A stretch of DNA of 64,000 nt. It comes from a virus. The position numbers and the translations under genes were made by a program. The stretch is taken from positions 29,802-93,801 of the IMG/VR virus record IMGVR_UViG_3300045996_002640; one strand, 5' to 3'. Each line of letters starts with the position of its first letter. Position 1 is the first letter of the stretch. Below the pieces are notes generated by a model. The model did no database searches and was not told where the DNA came from. It saw only the letters and a list, made by a program, of their open reading frames with translations. Of the stretch, positions 14,504 through 60,328 are shown one piece after another.

Positions 14504-15109
14504 TCACGCGCGAAGACTGCGTGTCAAGCGCGCTTGATCGACCGAGCGCGCGATCTCGATCAGCCACTCGGCGAACGCGGGAGGTGATTTGCGTCGCTGC
14601 TCGGCGCTGCAGACCTTGATTCCGTCGGGTACTGGACCGCGCGGAGCGTTGCGCGAGCCGCTCGCCCAGTGCGTCGGCACGCCTCCAGTGCGCACGCCTT
14701 GCTCCACGAAATCGCGTGGAGCTCCTACGATGTAGAGCCAGGTCTTTTTGCGAGCGACGTGCCCCCACGCGCATTGCTCGACCTGGATCGTGAAGCCGCC
14801 GTACGTGTCCATGAGCTCGCCGGGGCGAGGGAGCTCGACCAGCTTCCAGAGCGTCGAGTGAGCAGGGTGCTCGAGCACGCCTCCGAACACCCGCACCTGA
14901 GCCACAGCGATCAGCGCGCAATCGTTCTCAGCGCCTTGGTACAGCTGCTTGAGCTTCGAGTAGGGGCCGCACGGAGGATGCGCGACGACCGGCCAGGGCC
15001 CGGCGTACCCGCGCGCGTCGCGCTTCGCATCCCAGCAAAACGACGACCCGAGCAGCTCCGGGTAGGGGCCGTTCGGGTCGATGTAGAGCGCTGCAACTCG
15101 AGCGGTCAT
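14504..15109 (-). CDS. Short C5-cytosine methyltransferase-like protein
   Basis: ATG overlaps the portal stop; VVAHPPCG (motif IV-like), VLEHP (motif VI-like), GH..RKKTWLY (motif VIII-like), TP..FAEWL-like C-terminus. Confidence 0.55.
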   Translation of the reverse strand: MTARVAALYIDPNGPYPELLGSSFCWDAKRDARGYAGPWPVVAHPPCGPYSKLKQLYQGAENDCALIAVAQVRVFGGVLEHPAHSTLWKLVELPRPGELMDTYGGFTIQVEQCAWGHVARKKTWLYIVGAPRDFVEQGVRTGGVPTHWASGSRNAPRGPVPDGIKVCSAEQRRKSPPAFAEWLIEIARSVDQARLTRSLRA

Positions 15110-17778
15110 TCCGGCGGGAACAAGACCGTCGCGTCGAACCCGTCGTCCGGCAGATCCTGAATCTCGGAGCCGGTCCGGATCGTCATTCCCTTGGCGCGCC
15201 TCGGGCTCATCGAGGCGACGCGGCACCGGCAATTGAAGCCCCACGGAGGCCCGCCCTTGGTTCGCCAGAACGAGTCGTCCGCTCTCAAGACCCAGCCGTG
15301 CACCGCGCCGTGCGTCTCGCGCTGCCGAGCGTCGCGCACGGTGTAAATCCGCCAGTAGGGCCGAGCCTCGATGCGCGCCGGCTGGCTCATCTCGGTGCGG
15401 CGTCCGACGTTGTAGGCGTCGACCACGTTCGTCCGGTAGACAGTCTCGAGGTGGCTCGGGTTGAGCGAGCTCATCCCCGCCGACTGGAACCTGTCCTTGA
15501 GGTCCTTGGCAAACGAGTCGAGCGACCGCCCCTCGCTGATGGCGCGGGTGAGCTCGGCCTGCGCGACCGCGAGCGCCTTGTCCGAGGCGAGCCCGGCGAC
15601 CGTGAACGCGCGCTGCTTCGCCGCCGACTGGAGCCGGTCGAAGACCGAGCGCGTAACCGGCTGCTTGCTCTTGAAGTAGCGAACCGCGTCGGCGTACGGC
15701 ATCCGGGTGAAGGTCGGCTTCTTCTGAGTGTTCGGGTCCGGCGCCGCGGGTTGGGCACCCGAGCCGTCGTCGTCCTCGTCATCGTCGCCGCCGCTCGCGA
15801 GCATCACGCGGAGCTCTTCGCGCCGCTCAGCCTCTGCCTTCTCGGTCTCGGGAGTCGGGAACTCCTCCGGCTCGACCACGATTTCGTTATCGGCTTCGTA
15901 CTGGCTATCCAGCATGCCGGTCATCGAGCCCTTATTCACAGCGCTGTTCACCAGGCGCGAGAACGGGAGGAGGTCCAGACGGGCGTGCGCTTTCTTGAGC
16001 GCTCGGTTGATGTCGCTCGCCTTGGTCTTTCCCTCGACTGCTTCGGCCAGCGCCGAAGCCCACCGATCGGTGACCAGGGAGGCCGAACGCACCGACCGCG
16101 TGATGATGTCCTCGAGCGAGCCGTGGATCGTCTCGGGCTGCTTGAGCGCGGGGCCCTTGGCGAGATGGACGTGGCCAGCGTGCGGGTCGCCCTCGAGGTT
16201 CGCGCCGAGACCGGCCATGCGAGCGACCAGCTGGTCGATCATTTCGGAGCTCAGGGCGACCGCTGCAGCGATCGAGATCGGGCCCACGTTGGGCAGCGTC
16301 TTGCTCGGGTCCTCCTCGGTGGGCTTGGCCTCGGTCGGAGCCGGCGAGGGCTCAGGCTCGGGCGTGGACGCCGGCGTGGGGGTCGGCTCCGGCTCGGGGT
16401 CCTCGCCCGGGAACACGACGGTCGGCTGGCGATTGCCGAGCCCGGTCGCGTCGACCATGACCAGCTTCGGTTCGTTCGCGGTCGGGCGCCGGAAGCCGGC
16501 GATCTCGTAAGCCTCGTCCAGCGAGATCTCGAGGCCAGCATTCAGGGCCGCCTGCAGGCGCTCGGTCTCGGCCTTCTGGTCCGTGGGGATCTCGGCCCGG
16601 ATGACGAACTTGGGCGCGTGGGTGAGCGCCGCCGCGCCGAAGTTCAGGGCGATGATCGGGTCGGTGAGCGTGTCCTCGACCGCGCTCGCGACCAGGTCGC
16701 AATCCCCGGTGAAGATCAGCAGCTGGTCGTCCTGCATGATCGAGCTCTGCATCCCAGCGCCGAGGCCGTTCGAGACCGCGTCGGTGGTGCCAGTCTGCCC
16801 GAGCACGAGCTTCGAGATCTGGCGGTCGCTCTCGGCGATGACGTCGCTATGCACCGCGCCGGCGGTCGTCCCCGGCTGCACCGTCTCGAGCTTGGTCCCG
16901 CGCGGCATGCGGACCGAGGTGTTCCCGCCCAGAGCGTCCGCCGCGCGCTCGGCGTCGATCAGGTCCTGCGGCCCCGCTTGACTCTCCTCGTCCACGGTCA
17001 CGATACGCCACGGCTTGCCGAAGAGCTCGAGCAGGATCATTCGGTCGCGCGCGCCGAAGCGCTTGAAGAACGACCAGTACATGCAGCGCGGCGCGAGGCC
17101 CTCGCGCTCCGGGTACTCACCGAAGAGCTGCGGCTTGAACTGGACGAACTTGGGCCAGAGCGCGTCGAGCTCGAGCCCGAGCGGGACGAAGCCACCGCCG
17201 AGGTAGTTGTCGTCCGAAAGCCTGAGCTCACGGCGCGGGCCGAAGTGCAGCCGGCGAGGGTGAATCCAGGAGAGCTCCGCGGCGTACCAGGTGACGCCGC
17301 GCTTGTCCGGCTCGCGCAACACCCACTGGGTCTCGAGCGCCGCGCGCGCGTCGAAGAGCCCCCATGCGAGCTGCCGAATCCCTTGGGCGAACTTCTCGAT
17401 CTTGAGGATCTGCTCCCTGACGATCTCGGCGTAGAGCTTGGCGGTACCGGGGTCGACGCCCGGTCCCTCGGCGGGGATCACGTCCCAGGGCGCCGCCGCG
17501 ATAGCGTTGAACCGCTTGTTGAGCACCGCGGTCAAGTGCGGGTCGAGCGCGCAAGTCTCACGGCTCAGGTCCGTGAGGTCCTTCATGTAGCCGGCCTGCG
17601 CGTTCCGGATGGCGATCTCGATCCGGTCGAGGTTCAGCGACCGGCCGTAGTAGGTGCGCCACTCCTCGGAGCGCGGGGGCTGCTGGTAGATCAGTCGCTT
17701 GAGCTCGTCGGGCGTCGCCGTCGAACGGATCTGACGAGTCTCGGGATAGGCAGTCGCGCGGATAGGATGGCGAGGCAT
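15106..17778 (-). CDS. Portal protein (Mu gp29 / DUF935) fused to a Mu gpF-like head morphogenesis domain
   Basis: Portal motifs (DPHL...R, ELFGKPWR, ISKLVLGQTGTT) followed by gpF motifs (RAFTVAG, HLETVYRTN, RPYWRIYTVRDARQRETH, PPWGFNCRC) in one uninterrupted ORF; start ATG 17778 or GTG 17808. Confidence 0.9.
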   Translation of the reverse strand: MPRHPIRATAYPETRQIRSTATPDELKRLIYQQPPRSEEWRTYYGRSLNLDRIEIAIRNAQAGYMKDLTDLSRETCALDPHLTAVLNKRFNAIAAAPWDVIPAEGPGVDPGTAKLYAEIVREQILKIEKFAQGIRQLAWGLFDARAALETQWVLREPDKRGVTWYAAELSWIHPRRLHFGPRRELRLSDDNYLGGGFVPLGLELDALWPKFVQFKPQLFGEYPEREGLAPRCMYWSFFKRFGARDRMILLELFGKPWRIVTVDEESQAGPQDLIDAERAADALGGNTSVRMPRGTKLETVQPGTTAGAVHSDVIAESDRQISKLVLGQTGTTDAVSNGLGAGMQSSIMQDDQLLIFTGDCDLVASAVEDTLTDPIIALNFGAAALTHAPKFVIRAEIPTDQKAETERLQAALNAGLEISLDEAYEIAGFRRPTANEPKLVMVDATGLGNRQPTVVFPGEDPEPEPTPTPASTPEPEPSPAPTEAKPTEEDPSKTLPNVGPISIAAAVALSSEMIDQLVARMAGLGANLEGDPHAGHVHLAKGPALKQPETIHGSLEDIITRSVRSASLVTDRWASALAEAVEGKTKASDINRALKKAHARLDLLPFSRLVNSAVNKGSMTGMLDSQYEADNEIVVEPEEFPTPETEKAEAERREELRVMLASGGDDDEDDDGSGAQPAAPDPNTQKKPTFTRMPYADAVRYFKSKQPVTRSVFDRLQSAAKQRAFTVAGLASDKALAVAQAELTRAISEGRSLDSFAKDLKDRFQSAGMSSLNPSHLETVYRTNVVDAYNVGRRTEMSQPARIEARPYWRIYTVRDARQRETHGAVHGWVLRADDSFWRTKGGPPWGFNCRCRVASMSPRRAKGMTIRTGSEIQDLPDDGFDATVLFPPE

Positions 17779-17821
17779 CGCGCCCGGGACGGTAACACCC
17801 GGGCGCACGCTCGAACAGGCA

Positions 17822-18259
17822 TCAACTCGCGACCTTGATCAACTCGACGAGCTGTCCAATCAACCCGCGCAGCTCCGCAACACCGCCATTCCGAGCGCGA
17901 CGCTTCGCTTTCGTGACCGGCTTTGCTTTCAACTTCGGTGCAGGCGCGGCGAGAATCGCCGCCTCTTCTTCTCGTTCGTCGCGCATGCGCTTCGCCGCCG
18001 GAAACAGTGCAAAGCCGAAATGCTCCCAGAGCTCGAGCGCCGTTCGAACCCTCGGCTGCACCGTCCAGCGCGGGTTGGTCGCGCTCTCGATCGCTTTCCA
18101 AAGATTCCCCGGATCGACAGGCCGCCCGACTAGGAACTCCAAGTTCACCGCGAGCTCTTTCTTCGTCAGCCGATATTCCAAACGCTTTGCCTCGAACATC
18201 TCAGCCGAGCTCTTAGCAAGTCGAATCCGACGGCCACCGTCAACGCTGATCAAGTTCAT
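17822..18259 (-). CDS. Putative XRE/Cro-type HTH regulator
   Basis: KRLEYRLTKKELA...NLWKAIES pattern; SD AGGA before ATG 18259. Confidence 0.5.
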   Translation of the reverse strand: MNLISVDGGRRIRLAKSSAEMFEAKRLEYRLTKKELAVNLEFLVGRPVDPGNLWKAIESATNPRWTVQPRVRTALELWEHFGFALFPAAKRMRDEREEEAAILAAPAPKLKAKPVTKAKRRARNGGVAELRGLIGQLVELIKVAS

Positions 18260-30645: not shown

Positions 30646-32268
30646 TTAGAACCCTCCGCCTTGTGACTTGGTCGGGCTGCCTGCATGGGCGCCCGAAGTT
30701 TGCTCTGCTGGGTTGGCGAGCCCTTGCCTCGCGAGCCAGAGCGACGCGAGATGGTCGCCCATGTGGGTGCGCGAGCTGTAGCCCATGCACTCGTCGCCCA
30801 GCTGCTTCATCACCTGAGCGGGCTCGCCCTCGCTCGGGCACGGCCACTCCCAGAGCCCCTGCATGAGCTCGAAGAACACGCGCTCCACGCCGTTCTGGTG
30901 ATCGCTCTTGGAGCCGTGGGTCGTGTAGAAATAGACGACCGGAATCCGCTTGTCGCTCGCCTTGAGGTGGTCGGCCACGAAGCGCTGCGCGGCGTTCGAC
31001 TCGACGAAGACCTTGGAGTCGTAGCGCAAGGCCTCCTCCTTGATTCGGCGCACGAGCTCGGGCCCGTTCCAGCGTCCGCTCTGGAGGTTCACGATCCGGC
31101 GCTGCTGGTTCTCCTGGACCTCGACCGTGCAGATTGAGCTGAGGTCGCTCTTATCGCCGCCGAGCCCGCCAACGTCCACGCCCGTGTAGTGGCGCAGGCC
31201 GTTCGGCTCGAGCTTGCGTCCGAGCTCGAGCCCGCGTCCCTGCTCGTAAGCCTCCAAGATCCAAGCGCGCTCGCAGCGCGAGGCCTCGTCCGCGAACGGG
31301 TCGCAGAGGTACATGCGGGCCCAGACCGCCGGGAGGAACTCGTTCTTCAGCGCCTCGATCGCCGCCTTGCTCCCGTACCTCGAGTGGCCGGGCCAGAGGA
31401 CGGACAGGACTTTCTTCGTAGGGGCCGCCGGCGAGCGCAGGCGCCAGAGCTCGGGGTGCTTCGGCACCTGAACGATCAGGTCCCCGTACGCCTCCTTGAT
31501 CTGGTCGACGCTCAGGCCCTCGACGACGATCTGGCCGTTCACGTCCATGGTGAGCGTCGGCCAGACTCGGGCGTAGCGATAGGTCAGGTCGTCCGGGTTC
31601 CAGGGCGTGTTGGTGATCGCGATCCGCTGCGGCCCTTGGTCAACGCGCGTGACGAAGTCGTTCTGGAACTTCCGCGCGAGCTCGTCGCGCTGCTCGAGCG
31701 TGGTGGTGTTCTCCTCGTTCAGAACATCGTCCGCGTAGAGGTGCGTGAGCCGGGCGCCCAAGACGCGCGTGCCGAGACCGAACGCCCTGAGGCTCGGGTC
31801 CTTGGCGACGCGCCTGCGCTCGACCTCGAGCACCGTGTCAGACCACTTCGCGTTCGGGTCGGGATGCTTCCGGAGCTTCGGGAAGACGAGCCGCAGTGAA
31901 AGGCCCTCCTCGACGTAGCTCTTGAAGATCTTCACCGGCATCGAGGCCTGCGCCTCGCTCGCGCTCACGATACCGACACGGGCTTGTGGGTCCCGACCGA
32001 GCTGGTGCGTGAGGTGCGACGAAAGCAGGAACGTCTTCGAGGCGCCCGTCGGCATCCTGATCACGCTCCGGCGATTGTCGTCCATGAACCTGAGGACCAG
32101 GTGCTGGTGCGGGACGAGCCGAACGGGATCGCCGCTCTCGGTGTTCATGGCGAACTCGGCCATGACCGCAGGGTCTTCTCGGGCCTCGCCCGCGTAGGTG
32201 GCGACGGCCGTTAGCAACTTCGCTTGCTCCTCAGGCGTCAACGCCAGGAGCGGGTTGGGAGCGCTCAC
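30646..32268 (-). CDS. terL: Terminase large subunit
   Basis: LVPHQ Q-motif, IRMPTGASKT Walker A, HLYADD Walker B, TNTPW coupling motif, YTGVDVG and GDHLASLW nuclease aspartates; GTG start 32268. Confidence 0.9.
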   Translation of the reverse strand: MSAPNPLLALTPEEQAKLLTAVATYAGEAREDPAVMAEFAMNTESGDPVRLVPHQHLVLRFMDDNRRSVIRMPTGASKTFLLSSHLTHQLGRDPQARVGIVSASEAQASMPVKIFKSYVEEGLSLRLVFPKLRKHPDPNAKWSDTVLEVERRRVAKDPSLRAFGLGTRVLGARLTHLYADDVLNEENTTTLEQRDELARKFQNDFVTRVDQGPQRIAITNTPWNPDDLTYRYARVWPTLTMDVNGQIVVEGLSVDQIKEAYGDLIVQVPKHPELWRLRSPAAPTKKVLSVLWPGHSRYGSKAAIEALKNEFLPAVWARMYLCDPFADEASRCERAWILEAYEQGRGLELGRKLEPNGLRHYTGVDVGGLGGDKSDLSSICTVEVQENQQRRIVNLQSGRWNGPELVRRIKEEALRYDSKVFVESNAAQRFVADHLKASDKRIPVVYFYTTHGSKSDHQNGVERVFFELMQGLWEWPCPSEGEPAQVMKQLGDECMGYSSRTHMGDHLASLWLARQGLANPAEQTSGAHAGSPTKSQGGGF

Positions 32269-32827
32269 TCTCGGAATAGAAGCAGAGCGGGTGTCAGCGC
32301 ACAAGCCCGGCGAGTGAATTCCAGAATTGACCGGAACGCCGCGCGAGGCGACGCGAGCTCGAGCTCACTTCCGAAATGGGCGCCCGTCGCACCGATGCTG
32401 CGCGCGCTCCGAGCTCACTTCCGGAATGCTCCGCTTACTTCGCGGGAGTCTCGGAAGCATTCGATCACTTCCGAAAGTCGCTCCGAAGTATCGGCAGTGG
32501 CGAGCAGGTTCCGGCGACTTTCGGAATTGGCGAACGGCGCTCGTGACCTCACGCAAAAACGGAGGCACTTCCGGAATGCCCTCCAGTTTTTCGCAGCGGT
32601 ACCGTGCTCGCCATCGGCTTTCAGAATTCGGGCCCGAGGCGCGCGGGTCGGGCCCGAGCCCGGCTCACTTCCGAAAGCTCCGCTTACTTCGAGCCACTCC
32701 GAGCGCAGGTTCAGCGACTTTCGGAATCGGTCGGTTTGCTGCGCGGAGTGCCGAGCAGGTTCCGCGACTTTCGGAATTGGCGAGTACTCGTCGCCGCGCC
32801 TGGTGATGGCGAGGGCAATTCCGAAAT
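32266..32827. repeat. Non-coding array A: 12 copies of a CACTTCCGGAAT-like motif at exact 50-bp spacing
   Basis: Cores start at 32266, 32316, 32366, 32416, 32466, 32516, 32566, 32616, 32666, 32716, 32766, 32816. Confidence 0.9.
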
Positions 32828-32923
32828 GAGGTCGGCCCCCGGCGAGCGGCGCTAATAGGGCGGGCTCATTCGGGGGCCGGTGCTGGGCAAAAGTCGAGTT
32901 GCCCACTGCGATGTGTCTTTCCG

Positions 32924-33187
32924 TTATTCGAGCTTCGGCTTCGTCAGGTGTAGCCAGACCTCGACCTGATTCAGAAGTCGGTCGAGTCTTGCGTGCTCGG
33001 CTTCGAGGAACGAGCGCATTCTATCTTTCGAGACTGGTGAGCATGCGATGAGCAACCCGCCTGTTGGCGTTACGGAAACCTGGGTGGTTCCGATGCGGGC
33101 GTGCTGGTTCATGCCGGTCTCTTTTGCTCGGTCTCGGAGGTCGAGGGCGGCGAGGATCTGGACGTCCTCTTCCGAGAAGTTGGGCAT
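32924..33187 (-). CDS. Hypothetical protein
   Basis: 87 aa, fits the operon packing. Confidence 0.6.
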   Translation of the reverse strand: MPNFSEEDVQILAALDLRDRAKETGMNQHARIGTTQVSVTPTGGLLIACSPVSKDRMRSFLEAEHARLDRLLNQVEVWLHLTKPKLE

Positions 33188-33190
33188 CTT

Positions 33191-33610
33191 TCAGCGCCTC
33201 CGCTTCGGGCGCTTCGCGCGTTTCGTTTTCACCTTGGTTTTCTTCCGCGCCGGCCCGAGCACTTTGGCTTTTCGTTTTGCGGCCAGCGTTTTGCGGCGCG
33301 AGACCGGGACGAGGGGGTTGACGAGAATCGGCTCCTGGGCGAGCTGCCAGAGCCGGTCGATCTTCGCATTCAGAGAAGCGGCCGCTTCTCGCGCCATCTG
33401 ACGCGCTCGCTCCTTGGCTTCCGAAAGTAGCTCGTGAGCATCGCGGCCCATCAAGTGAGAGCCGGTCACTTTCCGAATGCCCTCGCCGATCACGCGCCGA
33501 GGCTGGACGTACGCGCGATTCGGAAAGACGCCCTGCTCGAACTCGACCATGATGATCCCGCGGGTCAATGCGTACTTGGTCGAGTAGCCGATGAAGAAGT
33601 GCGTGCTCAT
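33191..33610 (-). CDS. Hypothetical protein with basic tail
   Basis: STKYALTRGI motif; K/R-rich C-terminus. Confidence 0.65.
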   Translation of the reverse strand: MSTHFFIGYSTKYALTRGIIMVEFEQGVFPNRAYVQPRRVIGEGIRKVTGSHLMGRDAHELLSEAKERARQMAREAAASLNAKIDRLWQLAQEPILVNPLVPVSRRKTLAAKRKAKVLGPARKKTKVKTKRAKRPKRRR

Positions 33611-34065
33611 GGCTCGGCTTTCGGAAGCTCGGGCGCCGGCGCGAGGCGCTGAGCCTCGAGGATCGGGAGGTTCGCTTCCGTCGGCACGTAGATCGTGTCG
33701 TTCTTGCCGCTCTCGAGCGTCTGAATCCAGAGGTACCGGAGGTAGGCGTCGTTGCCCTTGAGGCTCTCGCCGATGATCTGGTTCGCCTGAGCGACGCCGC
33801 GAGCCCGCACGACCTCGGCCTCGGCGAGCTTGGACGCGCTGTCGAGCTTCGCCTGAGCCTCGAGCACCGAAACCCGGCGAGTACTCTCGGCCTCGGCGAG
33901 CGCCGCTTCACCCGAGGAGCGGGCTGCGTAGATCCGGTAGTGCTGGCAGCCGGTGAAGGCGCCGACGACCAGCAGGCAAAAGATGACGAGCGCGCCGAGC
34001 AGCGTGAGGCCTGAGGGGCCGTCGCCGTTCGATTGGTTGGAGTCGGGTCGGGGGATGGTTTTCAT
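33607..34065 (-). CDS. Membrane protein, SPFH/stomatin C-terminal coiled-coil-like
   Basis: TM segment then GEAALAEAE..AEAEVVRARGVAQANQIIGESLKGN..YLRYLWIQ..IYVPTEANLPILEA. Confidence 0.75.
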   Translation of the reverse strand: MKTIPRPDSNQSNGDGPSGLTLLGALVIFCLLVVGAFTGCQHYRIYAARSSGEAALAEAESTRRVSVLEAQAKLDSASKLAEAEVVRARGVAQANQIIGESLKGNDAYLRYLWIQTLESGKNDTIYVPTEANLPILEAQRLAPAPELPKAEP

Positions 34066-34355: not shown

Positions 34356-35068
34356 TCGTCGTTCTCCTTGAGCCAGCGTTCAGCTGCCTCGATTGCAGGT
34401 AGGTACGAGACGCCCGAGCGGGCGCCGACGACCAGGTTCCGGATCACGTCGCGCGCGTCCCTGGCGGTCGCCTCGGCCTTGTGAAGTAGGTCGAGCGCCT
34501 CAGGGTGCAGCTTGGTCCTGAGGACCTCGTCGTACGCCGCGCGCGGGACGTACTCGGTCGGGGGGTTCGGCATTTCCTCGCCCTGGAACGGGAAGCACGT
34601 CGCTCCCATGAACTCGCCCGTGACCGGCTCGCGCTGCACCCACACGGCCTTCCAGCGCTTGCCCTCGAGGACGGCCGTCGCCTCGGGAATGGTCGGGCCG
34701 CCGAATCCCTTGGGCGCCCAAGGCAAGGGTGGCGGGGGAGGTAGCGGGGTCGGAACGAAGCCCCCCGAGCGCGGAGGGGGTGCGTTCGGCTCAGGTCGCT
34801 CCGTGTCGCCCTCGTCGCCCGCCTTGATGGCCCGGCCGATGTAGCGCCAGTCGCCCGCGTGGCAGGCGCACGGGCAAGGCGTGACCCGGCAATAGGGCGA
34901 GCCTCGGCGCCGGCACTCGTCGCAAGGGGTTGGACAGCTGGTGCACATCACGGTCCGGACGGCCTCGCCGTCCTTGCTGAGCGCCATCTCGTGCGTGTCC
35001 GAGCACGTGACGCAAACTGGGTCTTTCGGTAACTCGCTCACAATCCACCTCCGCCGAACATCAGCCAT
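34352..35068 (-). CDS. Cys-rich zinc-binding hypothetical protein
   Basis: CVTCSDTH..CTSCPTPCDEC..YC..TPCPCACH; start uncertain. Confidence 0.6.
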   Translation of the reverse strand: MADVRRRWIVSELPKDPVCVTCSDTHEMALSKDGEAVRTVMCTSCPTPCDECRRRGSPYCRVTPCPCACHAGDWRYIGRAIKAGDEGDTERPEPNAPPPRSGGFVPTPLPPPPPLPWAPKGFGGPTIPEATAVLEGKRWKAVWVQREPVTGEFMGATCFPFQGEEMPNPPTEYVPRAAYDEVLRTKLHPEALDLLHKAEATARDARDVIRNLVVGARSGVSYLPAIEAAERWLKENDE

Positions 35069-38553: not shown

Positions 38554-38942
38554 TTTGGAAGCTCCATCTGGTCCAGTTGGGCGCCCAATTCTTCCACCTG
38601 AGCCTCTGCCTCAGCCCGGTCAAACGCCCGCGGTCGGCCCCTTGGGCGCCGGGGCTCGGGCGGTGTCATGTCGACGCCGTAAGTCGCGTTCTCCTCAGCC
38701 TTGAACCAGCGCTGACCATCGGCCGATTTCATCAGGACGGCCCGGTGCCCCGACCGGAACTCGGCCTCGTACTCGAGCACGGCCGGGCCAAAGCTGACCA
38801 TGCCGCCACGTCCGTACACCGTCGATGACTTGTCCGAAACGCTCAGCGAGGTGCACTCCCACTCGTCGCCAAGCTCGTCGGGCCATCGAGCGCCGTAGCG
38901 CTCGAAATGGTCCCGGCCTGCCTCATACACCAGGTTTGGCAT
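38550..38942 (-). CDS. Hypothetical protein with C-terminal tag
   Basis: MPNLVY start; ends VEELGAQLDQMELPK. Confidence 0.75.
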   Translation of the reverse strand: MPNLVYEAGRDHFERYGARWPDELGDEWECTSLSVSDKSSTVYGRGGMVSFGPAVLEYEAEFRSGHRAVLMKSADGQRWFKAEENATYGVDMTPPEPRRPRGRPRAFDRAEAEAQVEELGAQLDQMELPK

Positions 38943-39561
38943 CGTCGACCGCCTCGCCGCTCGCAAGGAGCTCAGCGCGCACACCAATCGCGGGCCGCTC
39001 GCCGCGGAGGAGAGCCGCGATGTTTTCGCTCCCGAGCGAGGCCACGACCTGCTGGAGCGTGCGCTCGACCTCGGCGCTCAGCCCACCGAGATTGACCTGC
39101 ACCGGGGCATACGTGCCCATGATCTTCGCGACCTCGCGTTCCGCCGCGACGACCGCCGAATGGTCGCCCGCCGCCTTCGCCTTGACGATCGTGTCCTCGA
39201 GGCGGATCAGCTGCCGTCCCTTGGCGAGCTCGCGCGACTGACGCGCGTAGCCGTAGATCTGGAGCTCGGCCTCCTCGATCACGCGCTTGAGCCTGTCCTC
39301 CTCGTCCTTCGGAAGCGTCACCTTGGCCGGTGGGTTCTTCTGATCGGCGCCCGCCATCTGAAGACGCAGCTGGTGCAGCACGTCCTCCATCGCCGCGGTG
39401 TGAGCAATCAGGTTGCGGGCCTGCCTGACGAGCTCGCGAAACTCGAGAGGCTCGCGCTTCGGCGCCTTCATCATCGGGCGAGCGCCTTGGTAGGAGCTCG
39501 CAGGCGCGTTCGCTTTTCGCTTCGTCTTCGGTGGGGGTACCGCAACCTGGGTCGCCATCAA
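38923..39561 (-). CDS. Probable terminase small subunit
   Basis: Helical 212 aa with AVVAAEREVAKIMGTYAPVQVNL, typical of TerS oligomerisation ends; lies downstream of ParB/MTase genes and upstream of TerL. Confidence 0.5.
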   Translation of the reverse strand: MMATQVAVPPPKTKRKANAPASSYQGARPMMKAPKREPLEFRELVRQARNLIAHTAAMEDVLHQLRLQMAGADQKNPPAKVTLPKDEEDRLKRVIEEAELQIYGYARQSRELAKGRQLIRLEDTIVKAKAAGDHSAVVAAEREVAKIMGTYAPVQVNLGGLSAEVERTLQQVVASLGSENIAALLRGERPAIGVRAELLASGEAVDDAKPGV

Positions 39562-40464: not shown

Positions 40465-40971
40465 TCATGCCGCGGTCAGGTACAACACGTAGCCGGCGCC
40501 GAGCTCCTCGAGGCGTTCGAACCGAAAGATGGCGAGCTCGCCTGCCATGGTGATCACGAGCGGCTCGCCCAGATGGGCGCCCAAGCCGCGCGCCTGGACG
40601 CCGATGCACCACGGCTGGTTGTTCTTTCGGAACATGAGCAGCGGCACCCGCTTCTCCTCGCTCGCTGCCGCGGTGCACTGTTCCCACCAATCCCAAGCGC
40701 GGTGCTTCTCGCCTGCAAGGAGCTTGGACCACTTCCAGTTCTGCTCCCGCTTGACCTCGACCGAGAACGGCCAGATCAGGGAAGTCGTCATCAGGTCGCC
40801 AGCCGCGTTATAGGCCGCGCGAATCGCAGGCGTCGACCACCCACCGCTCAGCGGCGTCGAGACGAACTTCGTACCGGGCTCGACAGGCTCCCACCACGCC
40901 GCGAGAACGCGGGCAGCTTCGCGCTCGCCCGCTTTTCCTTTTGCCCGCCCGTTGATGCGGCCCGATTTCAC
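40465..40971 (-). CDS. Holliday junction resolvase-like PD-(D/E)xK nuclease
   Basis: GRAKGKAGEREAA..GDL..FSVEVKR..WWEQ..PLLMFRKN..W. Confidence 0.8.
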   Translation of the reverse strand: MKSGRINGRAKGKAGEREAARVLAAWWEPVEPGTKFVSTPLSGGWSTPAIRAAYNAAGDLMTTSLIWPFSVEVKREQNWKWSKLLAGEKHRAWDWWEQCTAAASEEKRVPLLMFRKNNQPWCIGVQARGLGAHLGEPLVITMAGELAIFRFERLEELGAGYVLYLTAA

Positions 40972-41415
40972 AACGCACCCGCTTTCGGAAGTGCCCCGCG
41001 AATTCGGCGAGCAAACTCCGAACCGAGGCGATTTAGGAAGTGCCCCGCGTAAACGACGAGCAAACTCGAAACGACCTCGGGTTCTGGAAGTCGCTCCGGT
41101 TTTTGCGGCGCAAACTCAGAACCGACCTCATTTTGGAATTGCCCGCGAAAAATCGGAGGCAATTCCAAAACCCGACGCGTTTTGGAAGTCGGCACCAAAT
41201 TCGCGCGGCAAATCCAAAACCGACCGTCTTTCGGAAGTCGCTCGCAAAAATCGGAGGCAATTCCAAAATCGGAGCCGTTTGGGAAGTCGCGCTCGTTTTT
41301 GCGCCGGTCTTTCCGAACGCGCGCCTTTTCGGAAGTGCGGCTCGTATACGGGGCGCAAACTCGAAACCGCCCGCGTTCAGAAAGTAGCCCGCGAATTCGC
41401 GCGCCGAAAAAGAAA
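40963..41415. repeat. Non-coding array B: 9 units of 49-50 bp with TTTCGGAAGT cores and inverted half-sites
   Basis: Cores at 40983, 41032, 41082, 41131, 41180, 41229, 41278, 41327, 41376; each is preceded by a GCAA(A/T)(C/T)(C/T)C(A/G)(A/G)AA half-site. Confidence 0.9.
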
Positions 41416-41458
41416 GCGCGTCCCTCGTCGTTTTCGCCCTGGTTTTCCTGAGCGAAAC

Positions 41459-42592
41459 TCATCGGCAGCAGCCAGGTGAGAAGTAGATCGCCTCCTCCGC
41501 CTTGGTCTTGTTCGAGCCCATGGTCGAGCGCGTTCGCTCCCAGAGAAAGACCTCCCAGCCAGGGAGGTCGTAGTCGCCGGCATGACCGCAGATCGCGACG
41601 CGCATCTTCGGGTTCTCGCGAGCCCAGTCGCAGACAGCCTGAGCGACGACGCCCGCGCGGTACACGCCCTCGTAGCCCTCGTAGGGCGGGTCGAGGAAGA
41701 CGGCCGTCTCGTCGCCGCCGTACGACGAATTGAGGCAGCGGTCCCAAGACCCGTGGATCACGCGCACTCGCTCGAGCCGCGTTGCGATCCGTCGCAGCCA
41801 GAAGAACGCCTGGTAGCCAGCGCTCGTCCACGCCTTGATGTCGCCGCCCGAACTCGAGAAGGCCCCGCGCTTCGCCTGGACGCCGCGCCCGGCATTCCCG
41901 GTGTGAGGGACCGAGCCCTTGCCCTCGGGACCCTTGCCGCCGCGCCCGCGCGCCTGAATGCCCGAGCCGCCGCCGGCGACCGCGGGGATCTTACCCCTGG
42001 CCTTCACGCTCGCGCCGTCCGCGCCGATGGCGAGCAGGCCACGCCCGGTCGAGGCGTGCTCAGGGACGCGGCCGCGCGCCTGGATACCCTGGCCAGCTGC
42101 CGTCACGCGGGGGATCTGAGCGGGGTCCTGGAGCGCAGGCTCAGGCGCGCCGCCCCGATCCCATTCGCACCAGCCCGAACCGATCCACGCGCACTGCCCG
42201 TAGAGCCACCACCCGGCGACCTTGGCGTCGCCTGGCCAGTTGGGGTCCTGGAGCTCGGCCGCGAGTCTCTCGCGCTGCTCCATGAGCCAGCCGTGCCGCG
42301 CGCCGATGTCCACGTGGCTCACCGGGTAGTCCGCGTACTTGGCGACCTCGTCGTTCTGGTAGACGACCGCTCGCCAGAAGTTCGCGATAAAGCCGTTCCA
42401 GTCACCCACCACCTCGAGCGGGCAAGGCGCCGGCGCGGCGAGCAGCACCGCGGCACTCCCGCAGAACGGTTCGAGGTACTGCTTCGGCCTTCCGAACCGA
42501 TCCCAGACGATCGGTGCGACGTCGCGCTTGCCCCCGAAGTAGGGGAACGGAGCCCTAAGAGGCTCGTTTGATTCGGTTGACGGCTTTGCCAT
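41459..42592 (-). CDS. Dam/D12-class N6-adenine DNA methyltransferase
   Basis: FPYFGGK, YLEPFCGSAAV, VFLDPPY. Confidence 0.9.
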   Translation of the reverse strand: MAKPSTESNEPLRAPFPYFGGKRDVAPIVWDRFGRPKQYLEPFCGSAAVLLAAPAPCPLEVVGDWNGFIANFWRAVVYQNDEVAKYADYPVSHVDIGARHGWLMEQRERLAAELQDPNWPGDAKVAGWWLYGQCAWIGSGWCEWDRGGAPEPALQDPAQIPRVTAAGQGIQARGRVPEHASTGRGLLAIGADGASVKARGKIPAVAGGGSGIQARGRGGKGPEGKGSVPHTGNAGRGVQAKRGAFSSSGGDIKAWTSAGYQAFFWLRRIATRLERVRVIHGSWDRCLNSSYGGDETAVFLDPPYEGYEGVYRAGVVAQAVCDWARENPKMRVAICGHAGDYDLPGWEVFLWERTRSTMGSNKTKAEEAIYFSPGCCR

Positions 42593-43169
42593 CCTTCGAC
42601 TTTCCCATCAAGAAGTGATGCCCGCACGACGGACACTCGACCTCGGTCTCGGCCTTGATCGTCGTCTTCGAATTCTCGGGCGGCAACGTCTGCGGAGCCG
42701 AGAGCGCCGCGAGCGCTGAGTCGTCGATCCCGATCGAGAGCGCAAACATCGGGTCGCCCGTGTTGATCTCGGCGATGAGCGCCGCGAGCGGCTCCTGCTG
42801 GAACGACCCCCGGCGAGCGTCGAGCTTGACCGTGAGGGCCATCGCCTGCGCGCGCGTCAGGCCGTGTAGGAAGACCATCGGGCCTTCGTCGTAACCAACG
42901 TCTCGAGCGAGCTCCCACCGGTGCTCGCCGTCGATGATCACGTTCTGGACGTTGCCCTTCTCGTCGGTGCCCCAAATCGTGAGCGCGTGGCTCGCGAGCC
43001 AACCGTCGGTGAGAAGCCCGTACCGAGTGCTTTCCTTCTGGAACTCGGTCATTTCGTTGGGGTTCCAGTCGTTCGGCTGCACCAGCTCGAGCGGCTTCAC
43101 CTCGACTATGCCCTCAATACGAGGGCCTTGCTTCGGCGCCTTGCTGGCGCGCTTCGATGCTTTCGGCAT
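42555..43169 (-). CDS. ParB/Srx-like N-terminal domain protein
   Basis: PNDWNPNEM, IIDGEHRW, C-terminal CPSCGHHF. Confidence 0.8.
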   Translation of the reverse strand: MPKASKRASKAPKQGPRIEGIVEVKPLELVQPNDWNPNEMTEFQKESTRYGLLTDGWLASHALTIWGTDEKGNVQNVIIDGEHRWELARDVGYDEGPMVFLHGLTRAQAMALTVKLDARRGSFQQEPLAALIAEINTGDPMFALSIGIDDSALAALSAPQTLPPENSKTTIKAETEVECPSCGHHFLMGKSKDGKAVNRIKRAS

Positions 43170-43173
43170 GCGA

Positions 43174-45033
43174 TCAGACTACCAGGCGAGACCCGTGTTC
43201 GTCTGCGATGATCTCGAGCCGGCGCGGGATCGCGTCGAGCACGTCGTCTTGGTGCGCGGTGATGAACGCCTGCTCGAAGCCGTAGCGACCCGAGAGCATC
43301 GTCACCAGGTGCGCCGCGAAGAGACGACGGTTCGCCTTGTCGAGCGCACCAAACGGTTCGTCGATGAGCGCGACTGACCAAGGCGCTGCACGCCGAGCGC
43401 GGAGGTAGCTCGCCGCCGATAGCTGCAGCGCCGCGCCTGCGAGATCCTCGGCGGCGCCTGAGATCCGCGAGAGCTCAAAGAACGGCTTCTCCTTGATGGC
43501 GAGCCCGCGCGCCGCGCCGCACTCGCACGTCTTGACCTTGTGGCTCTTCGGGAACCCTCGACCGCAAACCGCGCACGAGCTCGCTGGCTTCTTGCCCTCG
43601 GCCTCGAACCGCGCAGCGAGCCGGAGGTCGATGCCCGACTCCTCGAGCATGGCGTTCGCCCCGACCTCGACGAGATGGGCGCCCTTCTGGGCGACCTTGC
43701 GCTGAGCTTTCTTGCAGACCTCGAGAGCGAGCCCCGCCGCTCGCGCGGTCCGCGCCTTAGCGACAAGCTCAGCTTCGAGGAGCGCGAGCCGCTCGACTAC
43801 CCCATCGGCCATCGCAAGGTCAGTCTTCAGCTTCGCCACCTTTTCTGCAGCGATTCGCTGGGAGGTTACTCGAGCGGTGACATCCGGGGTCGGCCGACCC
43901 TTGGCCTCGAGCTGCAGTGCTTTCGCCTGCTCCCGCAGTGCATCGAGCCGCGCGTTCGCCTTCTCCCAGGCGCGCTCCTGCTCGGCCGCCAGCGTCTCCT
44001 CTTGAGCCAGTGCCGCGAGCTCGGTCTGCAAGATCGCGAGCTCATGGTCGAGAGCTGCACGTTGCTCGAGATCGCCGGCGCTGCGCGCACGCACCCACTC
44101 GGCGCTCGGGCACTCGGCTTGCGTGACCGGGCAAGCGCCATCGAAGCCGTGGTCGATCCGTTCCTGGATCGTCTCGCGCTCGGCGTTCGCGACCGCCCAT
44201 TCGCTGTCGAGCTCCTTGCGCCGAACAAGGCGCTCGGGCGGGATCACTGTTCTGGGAAGCGCGTCGAGTGCCTTGCGCCCGGCTGCCCCATTCGCGTCGA
44301 GTTGATCGAACGACGCCTTCTTTCGGTCGAGCTCAAGCTCCCTGGTCTCCTTCGCGAGCTCGGCCTCCGCCTCTGCGAGCTTGGTGCGGAGCGTCTCGAC
44401 CAGCGTCTCGGCGGGCCCGTAATGCTCGAGCGTAGCGAGCTGCCGCTTCGCCAGGTCAATGAGCTTCACGTGATCCTCGGCCGCGAGCTGCGCACGCTCC
44501 TGCTCGGTCTCGGCCCGCTCGATCGCCTCCTCGCCTTGCTGCAGGTCGAACCAGGCCGTGTACCGCTTCATGCGCTCGGTCGAGCCCTCGGTCGCCAGCC
44601 GGGCGATCTCCTTCTGCTTGGCGAAACAGGTCGAGAAGAAGTCGATCTCTCCGAGTCCGGTCCGCTTGGCCACCTCGATCTGAGCCGGCGGCCCACCACA
44701 CGTCTCGTTCGTGTTCGAGTCGCTGAAGACCAGCTGCGTGCTCTTGCCGCGCGAGCGCGAGCGCACCGCGTGCGTCCCGTCGCTGAAGTGCAGCGTGACC
44801 GAGGTCAGGTCCTCGTCCCACGAAATCACGTCGTCCTCACTCGGCGCCAGATGCCAGCCGAAAAGCACGTACGGAATCATCGAGAGAAACCAGCTCTTGC
44901 CCGCCCAGTTGCTCCGATCGGCGTCTGCCTCGTACCGCGCGACGATCGCGTAGCACCCCGGCTCGAGCTCGATGGATTGCCCGCCGAGGTAGGGCCCGAA
45001 GTTCAAGCTGTCGATCTGGGTGATGTGGGTCAC
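43174..45033 (-). CDS. SbcC/Rad50-like ATPase
   Basis: NFGPY, NWAGKS Walker A, KQ Q-loop, coiled coils with CPV hook, ISG signature, LIDEPFGALD Walker B, ITAH. Confidence 0.9.
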   Translation of the reverse strand: MTHITQIDSLNFGPYLGGQSIELEPGCYAIVARYEADADRSNWAGKSWFLSMIPYVLFGWHLAPSEDDVISWDEDLTSVTLHFSDGTHAVRSRSRGKSTQLVFSDSNTNETCGGPPAQIEVAKRTGLGEIDFFSTCFAKQKEIARLATEGSTERMKRYTAWFDLQQGEEAIERAETEQERAQLAAEDHVKLIDLAKRQLATLEHYGPAETLVETLRTKLAEAEAELAKETRELELDRKKASFDQLDANGAAGRKALDALPRTVIPPERLVRRKELDSEWAVANAERETIQERIDHGFDGACPVTQAECPSAEWVRARSAGDLEQRAALDHELAILQTELAALAQEETLAAEQERAWEKANARLDALREQAKALQLEAKGRPTPDVTARVTSQRIAAEKVAKLKTDLAMADGVVERLALLEAELVAKARTARAAGLALEVCKKAQRKVAQKGAHLVEVGANAMLEESGIDLRLAARFEAEGKKPASSCAVCGRGFPKSHKVKTCECGAARGLAIKEKPFFELSRISGAAEDLAGAALQLSAASYLRARRAAPWSVALIDEPFGALDKANRRLFAAHLVTMLSGRYGFEQAFITAHQDDVLDAIPRRLEIIADEHGSRLVV

Positions 45034-58891: not shown

Positions 58892-59164
58892 TTACGCAGC
58901 CGGCTCTGCCGCAGGACTCGGCCCGTTCATATTCCGACGAGCCAGCAGATCGGGCTTGATCAGTTTCGCGTTTTCGAGGGTCCGGACGTACCGGAATAGG
59001 CTCCGGCGGGTCACCCCGAGCGCTGTCATGAGCTCGGTCACCTTGGTCGTCCCAGGCTTACCCGCGGCGTCCTTGAGGAGCTTCGCGGCTTGCCGGTGAT
59101 CACCCTGCATCATCGCGATCTGAAACGCGCCGAGCTTCGTTGGTTTCTTGGTCGTCTTGGCCAT
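58892..59164 (-). CDS. HTH DNA-binding protein
   Basis: VTELMTALGVTRRSLFRYVRTL. Confidence 0.7.
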   Translation of the reverse strand: MAKTTKKPTKLGAFQIAMMQGDHRQAAKLLKDAAGKPGTTKVTELMTALGVTRRSLFRYVRTLENAKLIKPDLLARRNMNGPSPAAEPAA

Positions 59165-59390
59165 CGTCGTCGCTCCCATAATGCCGCAGCCGCTGAGCCT
59201 GCAGGCGGATCTCGTTCACCATCTTCCAGTCGTCAAGCAAGTACACCAAGCGGTAAAGCTGCCGCCGCTCGATTCCAAGCAAGCGCGCCGCCGCGTCCAT
59301 CGTGTGCCCGACACGCATCGCCCACCGAAGATGCTCCTTCGCGCGCTCGGGGGCGGTCTGAACCAACGCGCCGAACCAGGAGTAGTTCAC
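59100..59390 (-). CDS. Fis-type HTH protein
   Basis: MDAAARLLGIERRQLYRL; GTGA-coupled start. Confidence 0.65.
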   Translation of the reverse strand: MNYSWFGALVQTAPERAKEHLRWAMRVGHTMDAAARLLGIERRQLYRLVYLLDDWKMVNEIRLQAQRLRHYGSDDDGQDDQETNEARRVSDRDDAG

Positions 59391-60328
59391 CAAAGCCTCG
59401 CGTAGAGCTCGTCCAACGGAATCGAGTCTGCGTCCTCGCCGGACGGGAGCTCGACCACTCGCAGCGACTTCCAGCGCTTGAGCGACGCCACGATCTGCTG
59501 TGCTGCTGAATCGCCCGCCGAGCCCGAGTCCTTCACGTACACGAATTCGTCGAAACGCTGGAGCTCGAGCAAGTGCTCCGGCGCGACCTGGCTCCCGCAA
59601 AGCGCGCCGATGAATTGGGCGCCCGCACGCTCGCACGCGAGGACCTTAAGCACGCCCTCGGCGAGCACCACCGTGCCGCCTTCCTCCGGCCAGTACTGCG
59701 CTCCGAAGATCGCCCACTCGACCGGGTTCTCTTCGCGCTTCGGCGTGAGGTACTTGGGCTCGCGACCGAGAAAAGAGCGCGCCTGGTAACTCTGGAGCGC
59801 GCCATCGCGCGCGTAGACCGGGAACACGAGGCGCCCGGTGAGCCGCCCGTACGCGCCGTAGGAAACGCTCCAGCGCTCGATCTGCTCGGGGGTCAAGCCT
59901 CGACCAAGCGCGTAGTCGCGAGCGCGCGGGAGCCACTCGTCAAACGGCTTCTCGATGAGCCCGCCCGGCAGCTTGAACGAGTGCTGAGCGCCGGTACCGA
60001 TCCAGGGCCGCTCCACCACCTCGGTCTCAGTCGCCACGAAGTCGTCGAGCAGCAGCCCGCTCGCGCGCATCCACTCAAACGCGTCGTCCAGCGTGCAACC
60101 GAAGACCGCCATCACCAGATCGCCAGGGAGACCGCCTCGATGACACGAGAAGCAATGGTGCCTGCCATGCCGATCGTTCGCCGGCTCGTTCCGGATCGAC
60201 CACGAGGCCTTGCGGTCGTCGTGGTCGGGGTACGGGCATTGCGCCCAAATCTCGTTGCGGCGACCTTTCTTCTCCCGGTCGGCAGCGATCCCGAGCGCCG
60301 CGAGCAGGCGCGGAACGTCCGCCTTCAC
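59387..60328 (-). CDS. DNA primase (CHC2 zinc finger plus TOPRIM)
   Basis: CPYPDHDD..S.S..HCFSC..G; RLVFP..YQAR..PKYL; LAEG; D.G.AG; GEDAD. Confidence 0.9.
   Translation of the reverse strand: MKADVPRLLAALGIAADREKKGRRNEIWAQCPYPDHDDRKASWSIRNEPANDRHGRHHCFSCHRGGLPGDLVMAVFGCTLDDAFEWMRASGLLLDDFVATETEVVERPWIGTGAQHSFKLPGGLIEKPFDEWLPRARDYALGRGLTPEQIERWSVSYGAYGRLTGRLVFPVYARDGALQSYQARSFLGREPKYLTPKREENPVEWAIFGAQYWPEEGGTVVLAEGVLKVLACERAGAQFIGALCGSQVAPEHLLELQRFDEFVYVKDSGSAGDSAAQQIVASLKRWKSLRVVELPSGEDADSIPLDELYARLW

Follow-up and report, generated by a model that had tools for sequence, protein, structure and literature searches.

Immediately upstream of terL, the gene for the large terminase subunit, the genome of an uncultured phage of about 94 kb carries twelve copies of a 12-bp near-palindrome set exactly 50 bp apart. 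This element, called array A in what follows, lies in a window of 64,000 nucleotides which makes up bases 29802–93801 of the 93.8-kb IMG/VR virus record IMGVR_UViG_3300045996_002640 (linear, about 83% complete, guanine-cytosine (GC) content 65%); positions are those of the window unless the genome is named. Array A is very probably a DNA-level docking lattice for a dimeric protein, in which the site and the pitch have both been selected. The signal is in the DNA, and not in a protein or an RNA, because the array shows no codon periodicity, its spacers are unrelated, offsets within them have been compensated, and those copies that fall inside a gene encode differing amino acids. The original prediction, a first reading of the same letters, had proposed selection on geometry and a protein-binding lattice; the palindromic form of the site and the confinement of the motif to two arrays also speak for this view.

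Phased arrays of protein sites are already known as centromeres, iterons and operators. What is unusual here is that only the 12-bp site and the exact 50-bp pitch have been kept, that insertions and deletions have visibly been compensated, and that the register runs through protein-coding genes. This implies that protein and DNA form a rigid assembly whose step is about 17 nm, and we know of no characterised phage protein that explains it. Adjoining terL as it does, and with an inverted partner 8 kb off, the lattice provides a testable handle on where packaging, late expression or replication control begins in a large uncultured myovirus.

Sites and spacing in array A

The twelve near-palindromes, claimed to begin at 32266 + 50n without a slip, are found exactly there. 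Those with n = 0–3 read CACTCTCGGAAT, GAATTCCAGAAT, CACTTCCGAAAT and CACTTCCGGAAT, those with n = 4–7 CACTTCCGAAAG, GACTTTCGGAAT, CACTTCCGGAAT and GGCTTTCAGAAT, and those with n = 8–11 CACTTCCGAAAG, GACTTTCGGAAT, GACTTTCGGAAT and CAATTCCGAAAT. They are centred on the core TTCC/GGAA, and their asymmetric flanks keep one orientation throughout the twelve. With at most one mismatch allowed, the consensus is matched 24 times in the window, against 4.1 ± 2.2 times in shuffled sequence, and 23 of these matches fall in array A, in its extension or in a second array, array B. A weight matrix built from the twelve copies and run over the whole 93.8-kb record likewise gives high scores solely in the array A region and in array B. 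No secondary site was found in the units of array A.

The 38-bp spacers, described earlier as mostly dissimilar, are indeed unrelated: their in-register identity averages 0.31, against 0.29 ± 0.009 after shuffling. The remnants said to be shared by some of them are also present, and units n = 3–5 and n = 8–10 form a diverged block duplication with a lag of 250 bp. Within these two blocks the shared stretches GCTCCGCTTACTTCG and GAGCAGGTTCC are shifted by 1 nt relative to the motif, while the distances between motifs all remain 50 bp. Such 1-nt offsets, alongside distances of 50 bp throughout, imply that insertions and deletions occurred and were compensated; the pitch was kept all the same, which argues that the spacing itself is under selection. 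Matches of the spacers to the phage genome, an idea also raised at the outset, did not appear anywhere in the rest of it. In unit n = 7 the spacer, too, is palindromic: GC-rich and 30 nt long (32628–32657), it is 87% self-complementary.

No credible open reading frame (ORF) had been seen across the region, and this holds: GC content is equal across the three codon phases from 32270 to 32900, which leaves no coding signal, and no Pfam family was hit by any ORF overlapping an array. Array A is the longest stretch of the record without 3-base periodicity and array B the second longest; the two are the longest non-coding stretches of the 93.8 kb.

The register continues through two genes

The 50-bp register is longer than first claimed and runs on to 33627, giving a total of 28 slots over 1.36 kb (32266–33627). 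In its decayed part, slots 12–22, phases +1 and 0 are the best two of the 50, and a phase z of at least 3.47, which occurs in 0.9% of random 550-bp stretches, here falls on the phase of the lattice. After this gap of 600 bp, clear sites reappear in the extension A′ at 33416, 33467 (+1), 33516 and 33616, that is in slots 23, 24, 25 and 27. All four stand at phase 0 or +1 of 50; with a background of 6e-4 per position for such scores, about 0.5 sites would be expected in 840 bp. The genes beneath this part of the lattice, p87 and p139, have coding-like GC periodicity. Three in-register sites inside p139 encode LSEA, IRKV and VFPNR, and as these amino acids differ, the sites are not a protein repeat.

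A sister array of paired sites

Array B lies about 8 kb upstream and is oriented opposite to array A. Its nine strong sites, all minus-oriented, have centres from 40986.5 to 41379.5 and are 49 bp apart, with one interval of 50. Each unit adds a weaker, plus-oriented site 17 bp from the strong one and, 17 bp away on the opposite side, a tract of A5/T5 type. Such A/T tracts keep phase with the sites, and array B has 25 of them per kb, against 1.5 genome-wide. The lowest GC contents over 100 bp are 0.50 in array B and 0.53 beside array A. No extension of array B into its flanking genes was found.

The terL start

The last copy in transcription order (n = 0) had been said to hold the GTG start of terL. 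That GTG is in frame with the gene, and a homologue of 84% identity (P0002, encoded on 40 contigs, the longest of 95.7 kb) begins at the same residue; an N-terminal alignment with 15 homologues supports the GTG at 32268 or an earlier start. The database call for the TerL of the window itself (P0001, 531 aa) starts 9 codons further in, however, so that the GTG start is likely but not certain. Among cultured phages, the nearest kin of this TerL are the Autographiviridae terminases, a remote match of 26–27% identity over about 190 residues. Autographiviridae terminases cut at defined ends.

Genomic setting

All convincing genes lie on the minus strand. In the order of transcription, a replication/recombination module is followed by array B, a block of about 8 kb, array A, terL and the structural genes (Table 1). 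The block between the arrays encodes a PDDEXK/resolvase-like nuclease, a second methyltransferase and small genes; downstream of terL come further small genes and then the portal, protease, major capsid protein, tail sheath and tape measure. Gene content and order indicate a large contractile-tailed phage, and the gene set is of the virulent myovirus type.

Table 1. Positions of the arrays, of their sites and of the genes around them in the window.
Feature	Position	Strand	Remarks
terL, large terminase subunit	30646–32268	minus	phrog_38, E 6e-41
Array A, copy n = 0	32266–32277	plus	overlaps probable terL GTG start (32268–32266, minus)
Array A core	32266–32827	plus	12 copies of sACTTyCGrAAk, pitch exactly 50 bp, n = 0–11
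Array A, unit n = 6	32554–32603		extended imperfect palindrome, A5 and T5 tracts about 16 bp each side of the site; resembles a unit of array B
GC-rich hairpin CGGCCCCCG...CGGGGGCCG	32833–32879	minus	between p87 stop and first array unit; no U-tract
Decayed lattice, slots n = 12–22	32866–33415	plus	overlaps p87 and 3′ part of p139
p87, ORFan small protein	32924–33187	minus	alpha-beta3-alpha model; under lattice; candidate binder
p139, small protein	33191–33610	minus	Lys/Arg-rich C-terminal tail; three in-register sites in gene; candidate binder
Extension A′	33416–33627	plus	sites inside p139 and at p152 stop/p139 start
p212 (called as 183 aa, P0030)	38923–39561	minus	all-helical AlphaFold model, predicted local distance difference test (pLDDT) 81
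PDDEXK/resolvase-like nuclease	40465–40971	minus	first gene after array B
Array B	40949–41440	minus	nine 49-bp units (one of 50)
D12-class adenine DNA methyltransferase	41459–42592	minus	last gene before array B
ParB-like protein	42555–43178	minus	part of replication/recombination module
Two adjacent small helix-turn-helix (HTH) proteins	58892–59179 and 59100–59636	minus	beside primase/helicase genes, early region
Replication/recombination module, in order			helicase (61.5–63.2 kb); DNA polymerase (49.7–52.3 kb); UvsX-like recombinase; SbcCD; ParB-like protein; D12 methyltransferase

The detrended cumulative GC skew has its maximum at 34,943, between arrays A and B, and its minimum at genome position 10,944. 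A check of the skew had been proposed for the arrays, and an extremum does lie between them, but it is the maximum, the minimum being far off. Three consecutive 1-kb windows of positive skew occur in the record only at 32–35 kb, and the skew regime shifts near 35 kb. Because all genes lie on one strand, the skew is ambiguous as a marker of an origin, and gene class rather than replication may be the cause of the pattern.

Promoters of the form TTGCAA-N17-TAAGGT occur in 12 near-identical cassette modules at 3.8–13.5 kb of the genome, outside the window, with the palindromic spacer GGTGCCAGCCTGGCAC. One similar promoter, TTGACC-N17-TAGGGT, is found at 18990, directly before two tRNA-like genes, and none was seen elsewhere in the record.

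Candidate binding proteins

The two small proteins encoded under the lattice offer little by way of relatives. No family (Pfam, PHROGs) and no PDB relative was found for p139. For p87, a YbaB/EbfC-like fold is no more than a lead: the model has a pLDDT of 70, Foldseek gave no significant row, and VIA reached a Z of at most 5.3, with folds that are unrelated. Farther upstream, p212 belongs to a family also present in relatives; in the loci of 8 of these, its gene shares the strand of terL and precedes it by 68 bp to 6.3 kb. In the present phage p212 and terL are 6.6 kb apart with array A between them. It is from this synteny alone that p212 becomes a candidate for the small terminase subunit (TerS).

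Either of the two HTH proteins of the early region might regulate transcription or bind the arrays; one is winged-HTH-like (below threshold), and the other has a match of 22.8 bits to HTH_8/Fis-type. The ParB-like protein has PHROG matches and a weak C-terminal zinc-ribbon signal, with no Pfam ParB_N match and no recognisable HTH. It is kept in several relatives, 6–8 kb upstream of terL, and has methyltransferase genes as neighbours; its likeness would therefore be to the ParB part of ParB-methyltransferase fusions and not to a partition protein.

A possible place in packaging

Each of the 28 slots would hold, or once have held, the 12-bp near-palindrome, to be read by the dimer of a sequence-specific protein. 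Successive bound proteins would have to fit a fixed register, and a higher-order complex in which they wrap or coat the DNA would be the simplest way to do so. The same site would serve in pairs, in reversed orientation, in array B. What the arrays are for is a different matter. In the likeliest of the roles weighed, which is still a possibility rather than the probable answer, they may tell the packaging machinery where to take hold of replicated phage DNA, that is, serve in packaging or the marking of termini. Array A could then be a pac-like docking platform for the terminase next to terL; or A and B could bound, one at each end, a terminal-repeat or maturation segment in which the genes of the resolvase-like nuclease and of the small-terminase candidate also lie. 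Foremost among the candidate binders would be p139, p87 and p212.

Several observations favour such a role. The lattice ends on the terL start, a location that it shares with pac and cos sites, and the interval between the arrays holds both the PDDEXK/resolvase-like nuclease and p212. TerL has its nearest cultured kin, however remote, in the Autographiviridae, and in two of the relatives, G001 and G005, the largest non-coding stretch also lies 2–5 kb upstream of terL and is rich in repeats in G005. The lattice also covers the usual position of the small-terminase gene, and in P22, SPP1 and P1 the known pac site is within or next to terS. Packaging regions with repeated elements include the hexamers of P1 pac in pacA, SPP1 pacL/pacR and lambda cosB, as well as the arrays of short repeats beside the terminal repeat of T7. 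Like these, array A offers repeated sites for a protein in or alongside the terminase genes, with a TerL that is distantly T7-like; unlike them, it is five to ten times longer, keeps a strict 50-bp register and has a second array 8 kb away.

Against packaging, it must be said that known pac and cos sites measure 0.1–0.25 kb with at most about 7 repeats, compared with 1.4 kb at 50-bp pitch here, and that 50 bp per site does not fit wrapping round a single TerS ring. Pfam, PHROGs, a PDB sequence search and a fold search did not confirm p212 as TerS. The sister array and the positions at module boundaries suit a regulatory or a replication role equally well. Moreover, no array of the A or B type was seen in relatives that have the TerL and p212 families in common with this phage: about 40 loci, out to 10 kb from terL, and four whole records all lack one, as judged by scans of autocorrelation and stacked information which in the present record detect A and B alone; equivalent arrays upstream of terL, for which the original prediction had looked to relatives, are thus not seen in these distant ones.

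Other roles weighed

In a second and somewhat doubtful reading, the arrays would be operator or roadblock tracks for a phage regulator, governing how transcription enters the DNA-maturation block that follows B and the packaging and structural block that follows A. They stand at module boundaries as the two longest non-coding stretches, the end of each being no more than 15 bp from the start codon of the gene that follows, in a genome whose genes all run one way. The confinement of sigma70-like promoters to the cassette region and to the site before the tRNA-like genes implies that late genes need some other control, the GC-skew regime shifts near 35 kb, and the early region encodes two small HTH proteins. 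But neither array has a recognisable sigma70-type promoter or clear intrinsic terminator within it or next to it, the motif is missing ahead of the other late operons, A and B are oppositely oriented relative to transcription, and 12 to 28 sites at a fixed pitch of 4.8 turns far exceed the needs of known operators. Among dispersed phage operators are the mycobacteriophage stoperators. The SPBRE sites of SPbeta, bound by MrpR, are phage-specific, single and scattered at promoters (PMC10516654). Both resemble the present case in that one phage-specific site is used many times by one regulator, and differ from it in that the sites here occur in two tandem arrays only, with selected spacing; SPBRE/MrpR, whose sites stand singly and far apart, is for that reason no close analogue. 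An iteron-type replication element is, in our view, rather unlikely: B would be the origin, with its paired sites and bent low-GC DNA, A an auxiliary or control array, and the gene of the initiator would itself carry sites. One site is common to two arrays, one simple and one composite; array B comes after the replication/recombination module, is among the lowest-GC spots and has site-phased A/T tracts; and there are sites within the gene of p139, a protein without family or solved relative. Tandem arrays of at least nine sites in known replicons are mostly replication-control or partition elements, and two-array or in-gene origins include the lambda ori inside gene O, P1 incC/incA, P4 ori/crr, SPP1 oriL/oriR and, in Epstein-Barr virus, the FR and DS of oriP. 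These iteron or bipartite origins share with the present arrays the two separate arrays for one protein site, one simple and the other composite and bent, and the sites in a coding gene. The pitch of 49–50 bp departs, however, from the roughly two helical turns of iterons, no initiator is recognisable, and array A differs from an origin on two counts, having neither an AT-rich unwinding element (the lowest GC is 0.50–0.53) nor a GC-skew minimum at the site. The minimum near 10.9 kb of the genome and the maximum near array A even run contrary to an origin here, if the skew reflects replication.

The two opposed arrays might also form a chromatin-like device of the phage, a filament of fixed 50-bp register laid over genes and spacer DNA alike, which would either mark the paired boundaries for cutting and duplicating a long terminal repeat of about 8–9 kb or act as a polar barrier pair; this we consider improbable, and we know of no described phage precedent, in this form, for paired arrays as boundary markers or polar barriers. 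As a polar barrier pair proper, the arrays would flank the skew maximum as stops for replication forks, transcription or both, in the manner of Tus-Ter, RTP-Ter or rDNA barriers. The opposite orientations of A and B and the skew maximum between them are in keeping with this, as are the strong and weak sites 17 bp apart in each unit of array B, a pairing reminiscent of the RTP core and auxiliary sites. Yet the site is nearly symmetric, the skew shift is explained equally by gene class, the exact pitch is left unexplained and no phage precedent is known to us; such a pair we consider very unlikely. Less plausible again is a partition centromere bound by the ParB-like protein, akin to sopC, the centromere of the F plasmid bound by SopB, which has 12 repeats of 43 bp, each with a 16-bp inverted repeat (PMC3177203). 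The original prediction had drawn this comparison, and the likeness is real: about a dozen direct repeats of 43–50 bp, each with one short palindromic dimer site, and here a ParB-like gene 1.1 kb from array B. In sopC, however, the whole unit is conserved, whereas here only 12 bp and the spacing are, and the lattice enters genes and has an inverted sister array. No match to ParA (PF13614), ParB_N (PF02195), an integrase or Terminase_2 was found in the record, from which 17% of the genome is missing; since the tests for a ParA and for an HTH-ParB were both negative, array A does not belong to the sopC class. The ParB-like protein, which resembles a methyltransferase-attached ParB domain, is moreover conserved in relatives that lack the arrays, and the gene set is that of a virulent myovirus and not of a plasmid. 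Scarcely credible, finally, is the earlier suggestion of an RNA processed into 50-nt units, CRISPR-like or ToxI-like. With all genes on the minus strand the region is probably transcribed, and it folds with z-scores of −3.5 (array A, minus strand) and −6.4 (array B); but the plus strand of array A folds nearly as well (−2.2), and repeated palindromes give such values on either strand. In the window, the arrays match no Rfam family (two tRNA matches lie elsewhere), and no hairpin common to the array units was found. The conserved part is a degenerate 12 nt, as against the near-identical repeats of at least 23 nt, with unique spacers, of a CRISPR; some spacers are interrelated and none matches the phage genome (no search for cas genes was made), and the lattice continues into coding genes. 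The probability that remains after these roles falls to others outside those considered.

Relatives and database comparisons

The relatives, whose TerL is 30–40% identical, share with the present phage only TerL and the replication/recombination genes (helicase, polymerase, UvsX, SbcD, SbcC and PDDEXK), in conserved order. No structural genes common to this phage and the relatives' records G001, G002, G004 and G005 were detectable, and by this comparison of sequences module mosaicism among these phages is strong. The only periodicities in the relatives are of 63, 66 and 96 bp, probably protein repeats since they are multiples of 3.

A search of viral and prokaryote contig collections with the pattern of motif plus spacing gave nothing related to array A; its matches were coding repeats with multiple-of-3 periods, an AT-rich contig with a 50-bp duplication, and repeats from Thiomargarita and from giant viruses. 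The composite pattern of array B matched just a conserved coding sequence of AT-rich phages. A blastn search of the region against 50,697 cultured phage records returned no match, and nothing specific was found in the literature on regularly spaced repeats upstream of terminase.

Further observations

The largest non-coding stretch of G005, a 68-kb record, lies between its p212-like gene and terL (L023:4576–5044) and consists of C-rich complex tandem repeats with units of 14, 29, 68 and 113 bp. In the present phage, the portal protein (phrog_113, 15106–17838, minus strand; 910 aa) carries a fused C-terminal domain that matches "minor head protein and DNA pilot" (phrog_220). Outside the window, at 16.85–17.8 kb and 26.95–27.65 kb of the genome, strong periodicities of 66 bp and 96 bp occur in or near long ORFs; both being multiples of 3, they are probably protein repeats.

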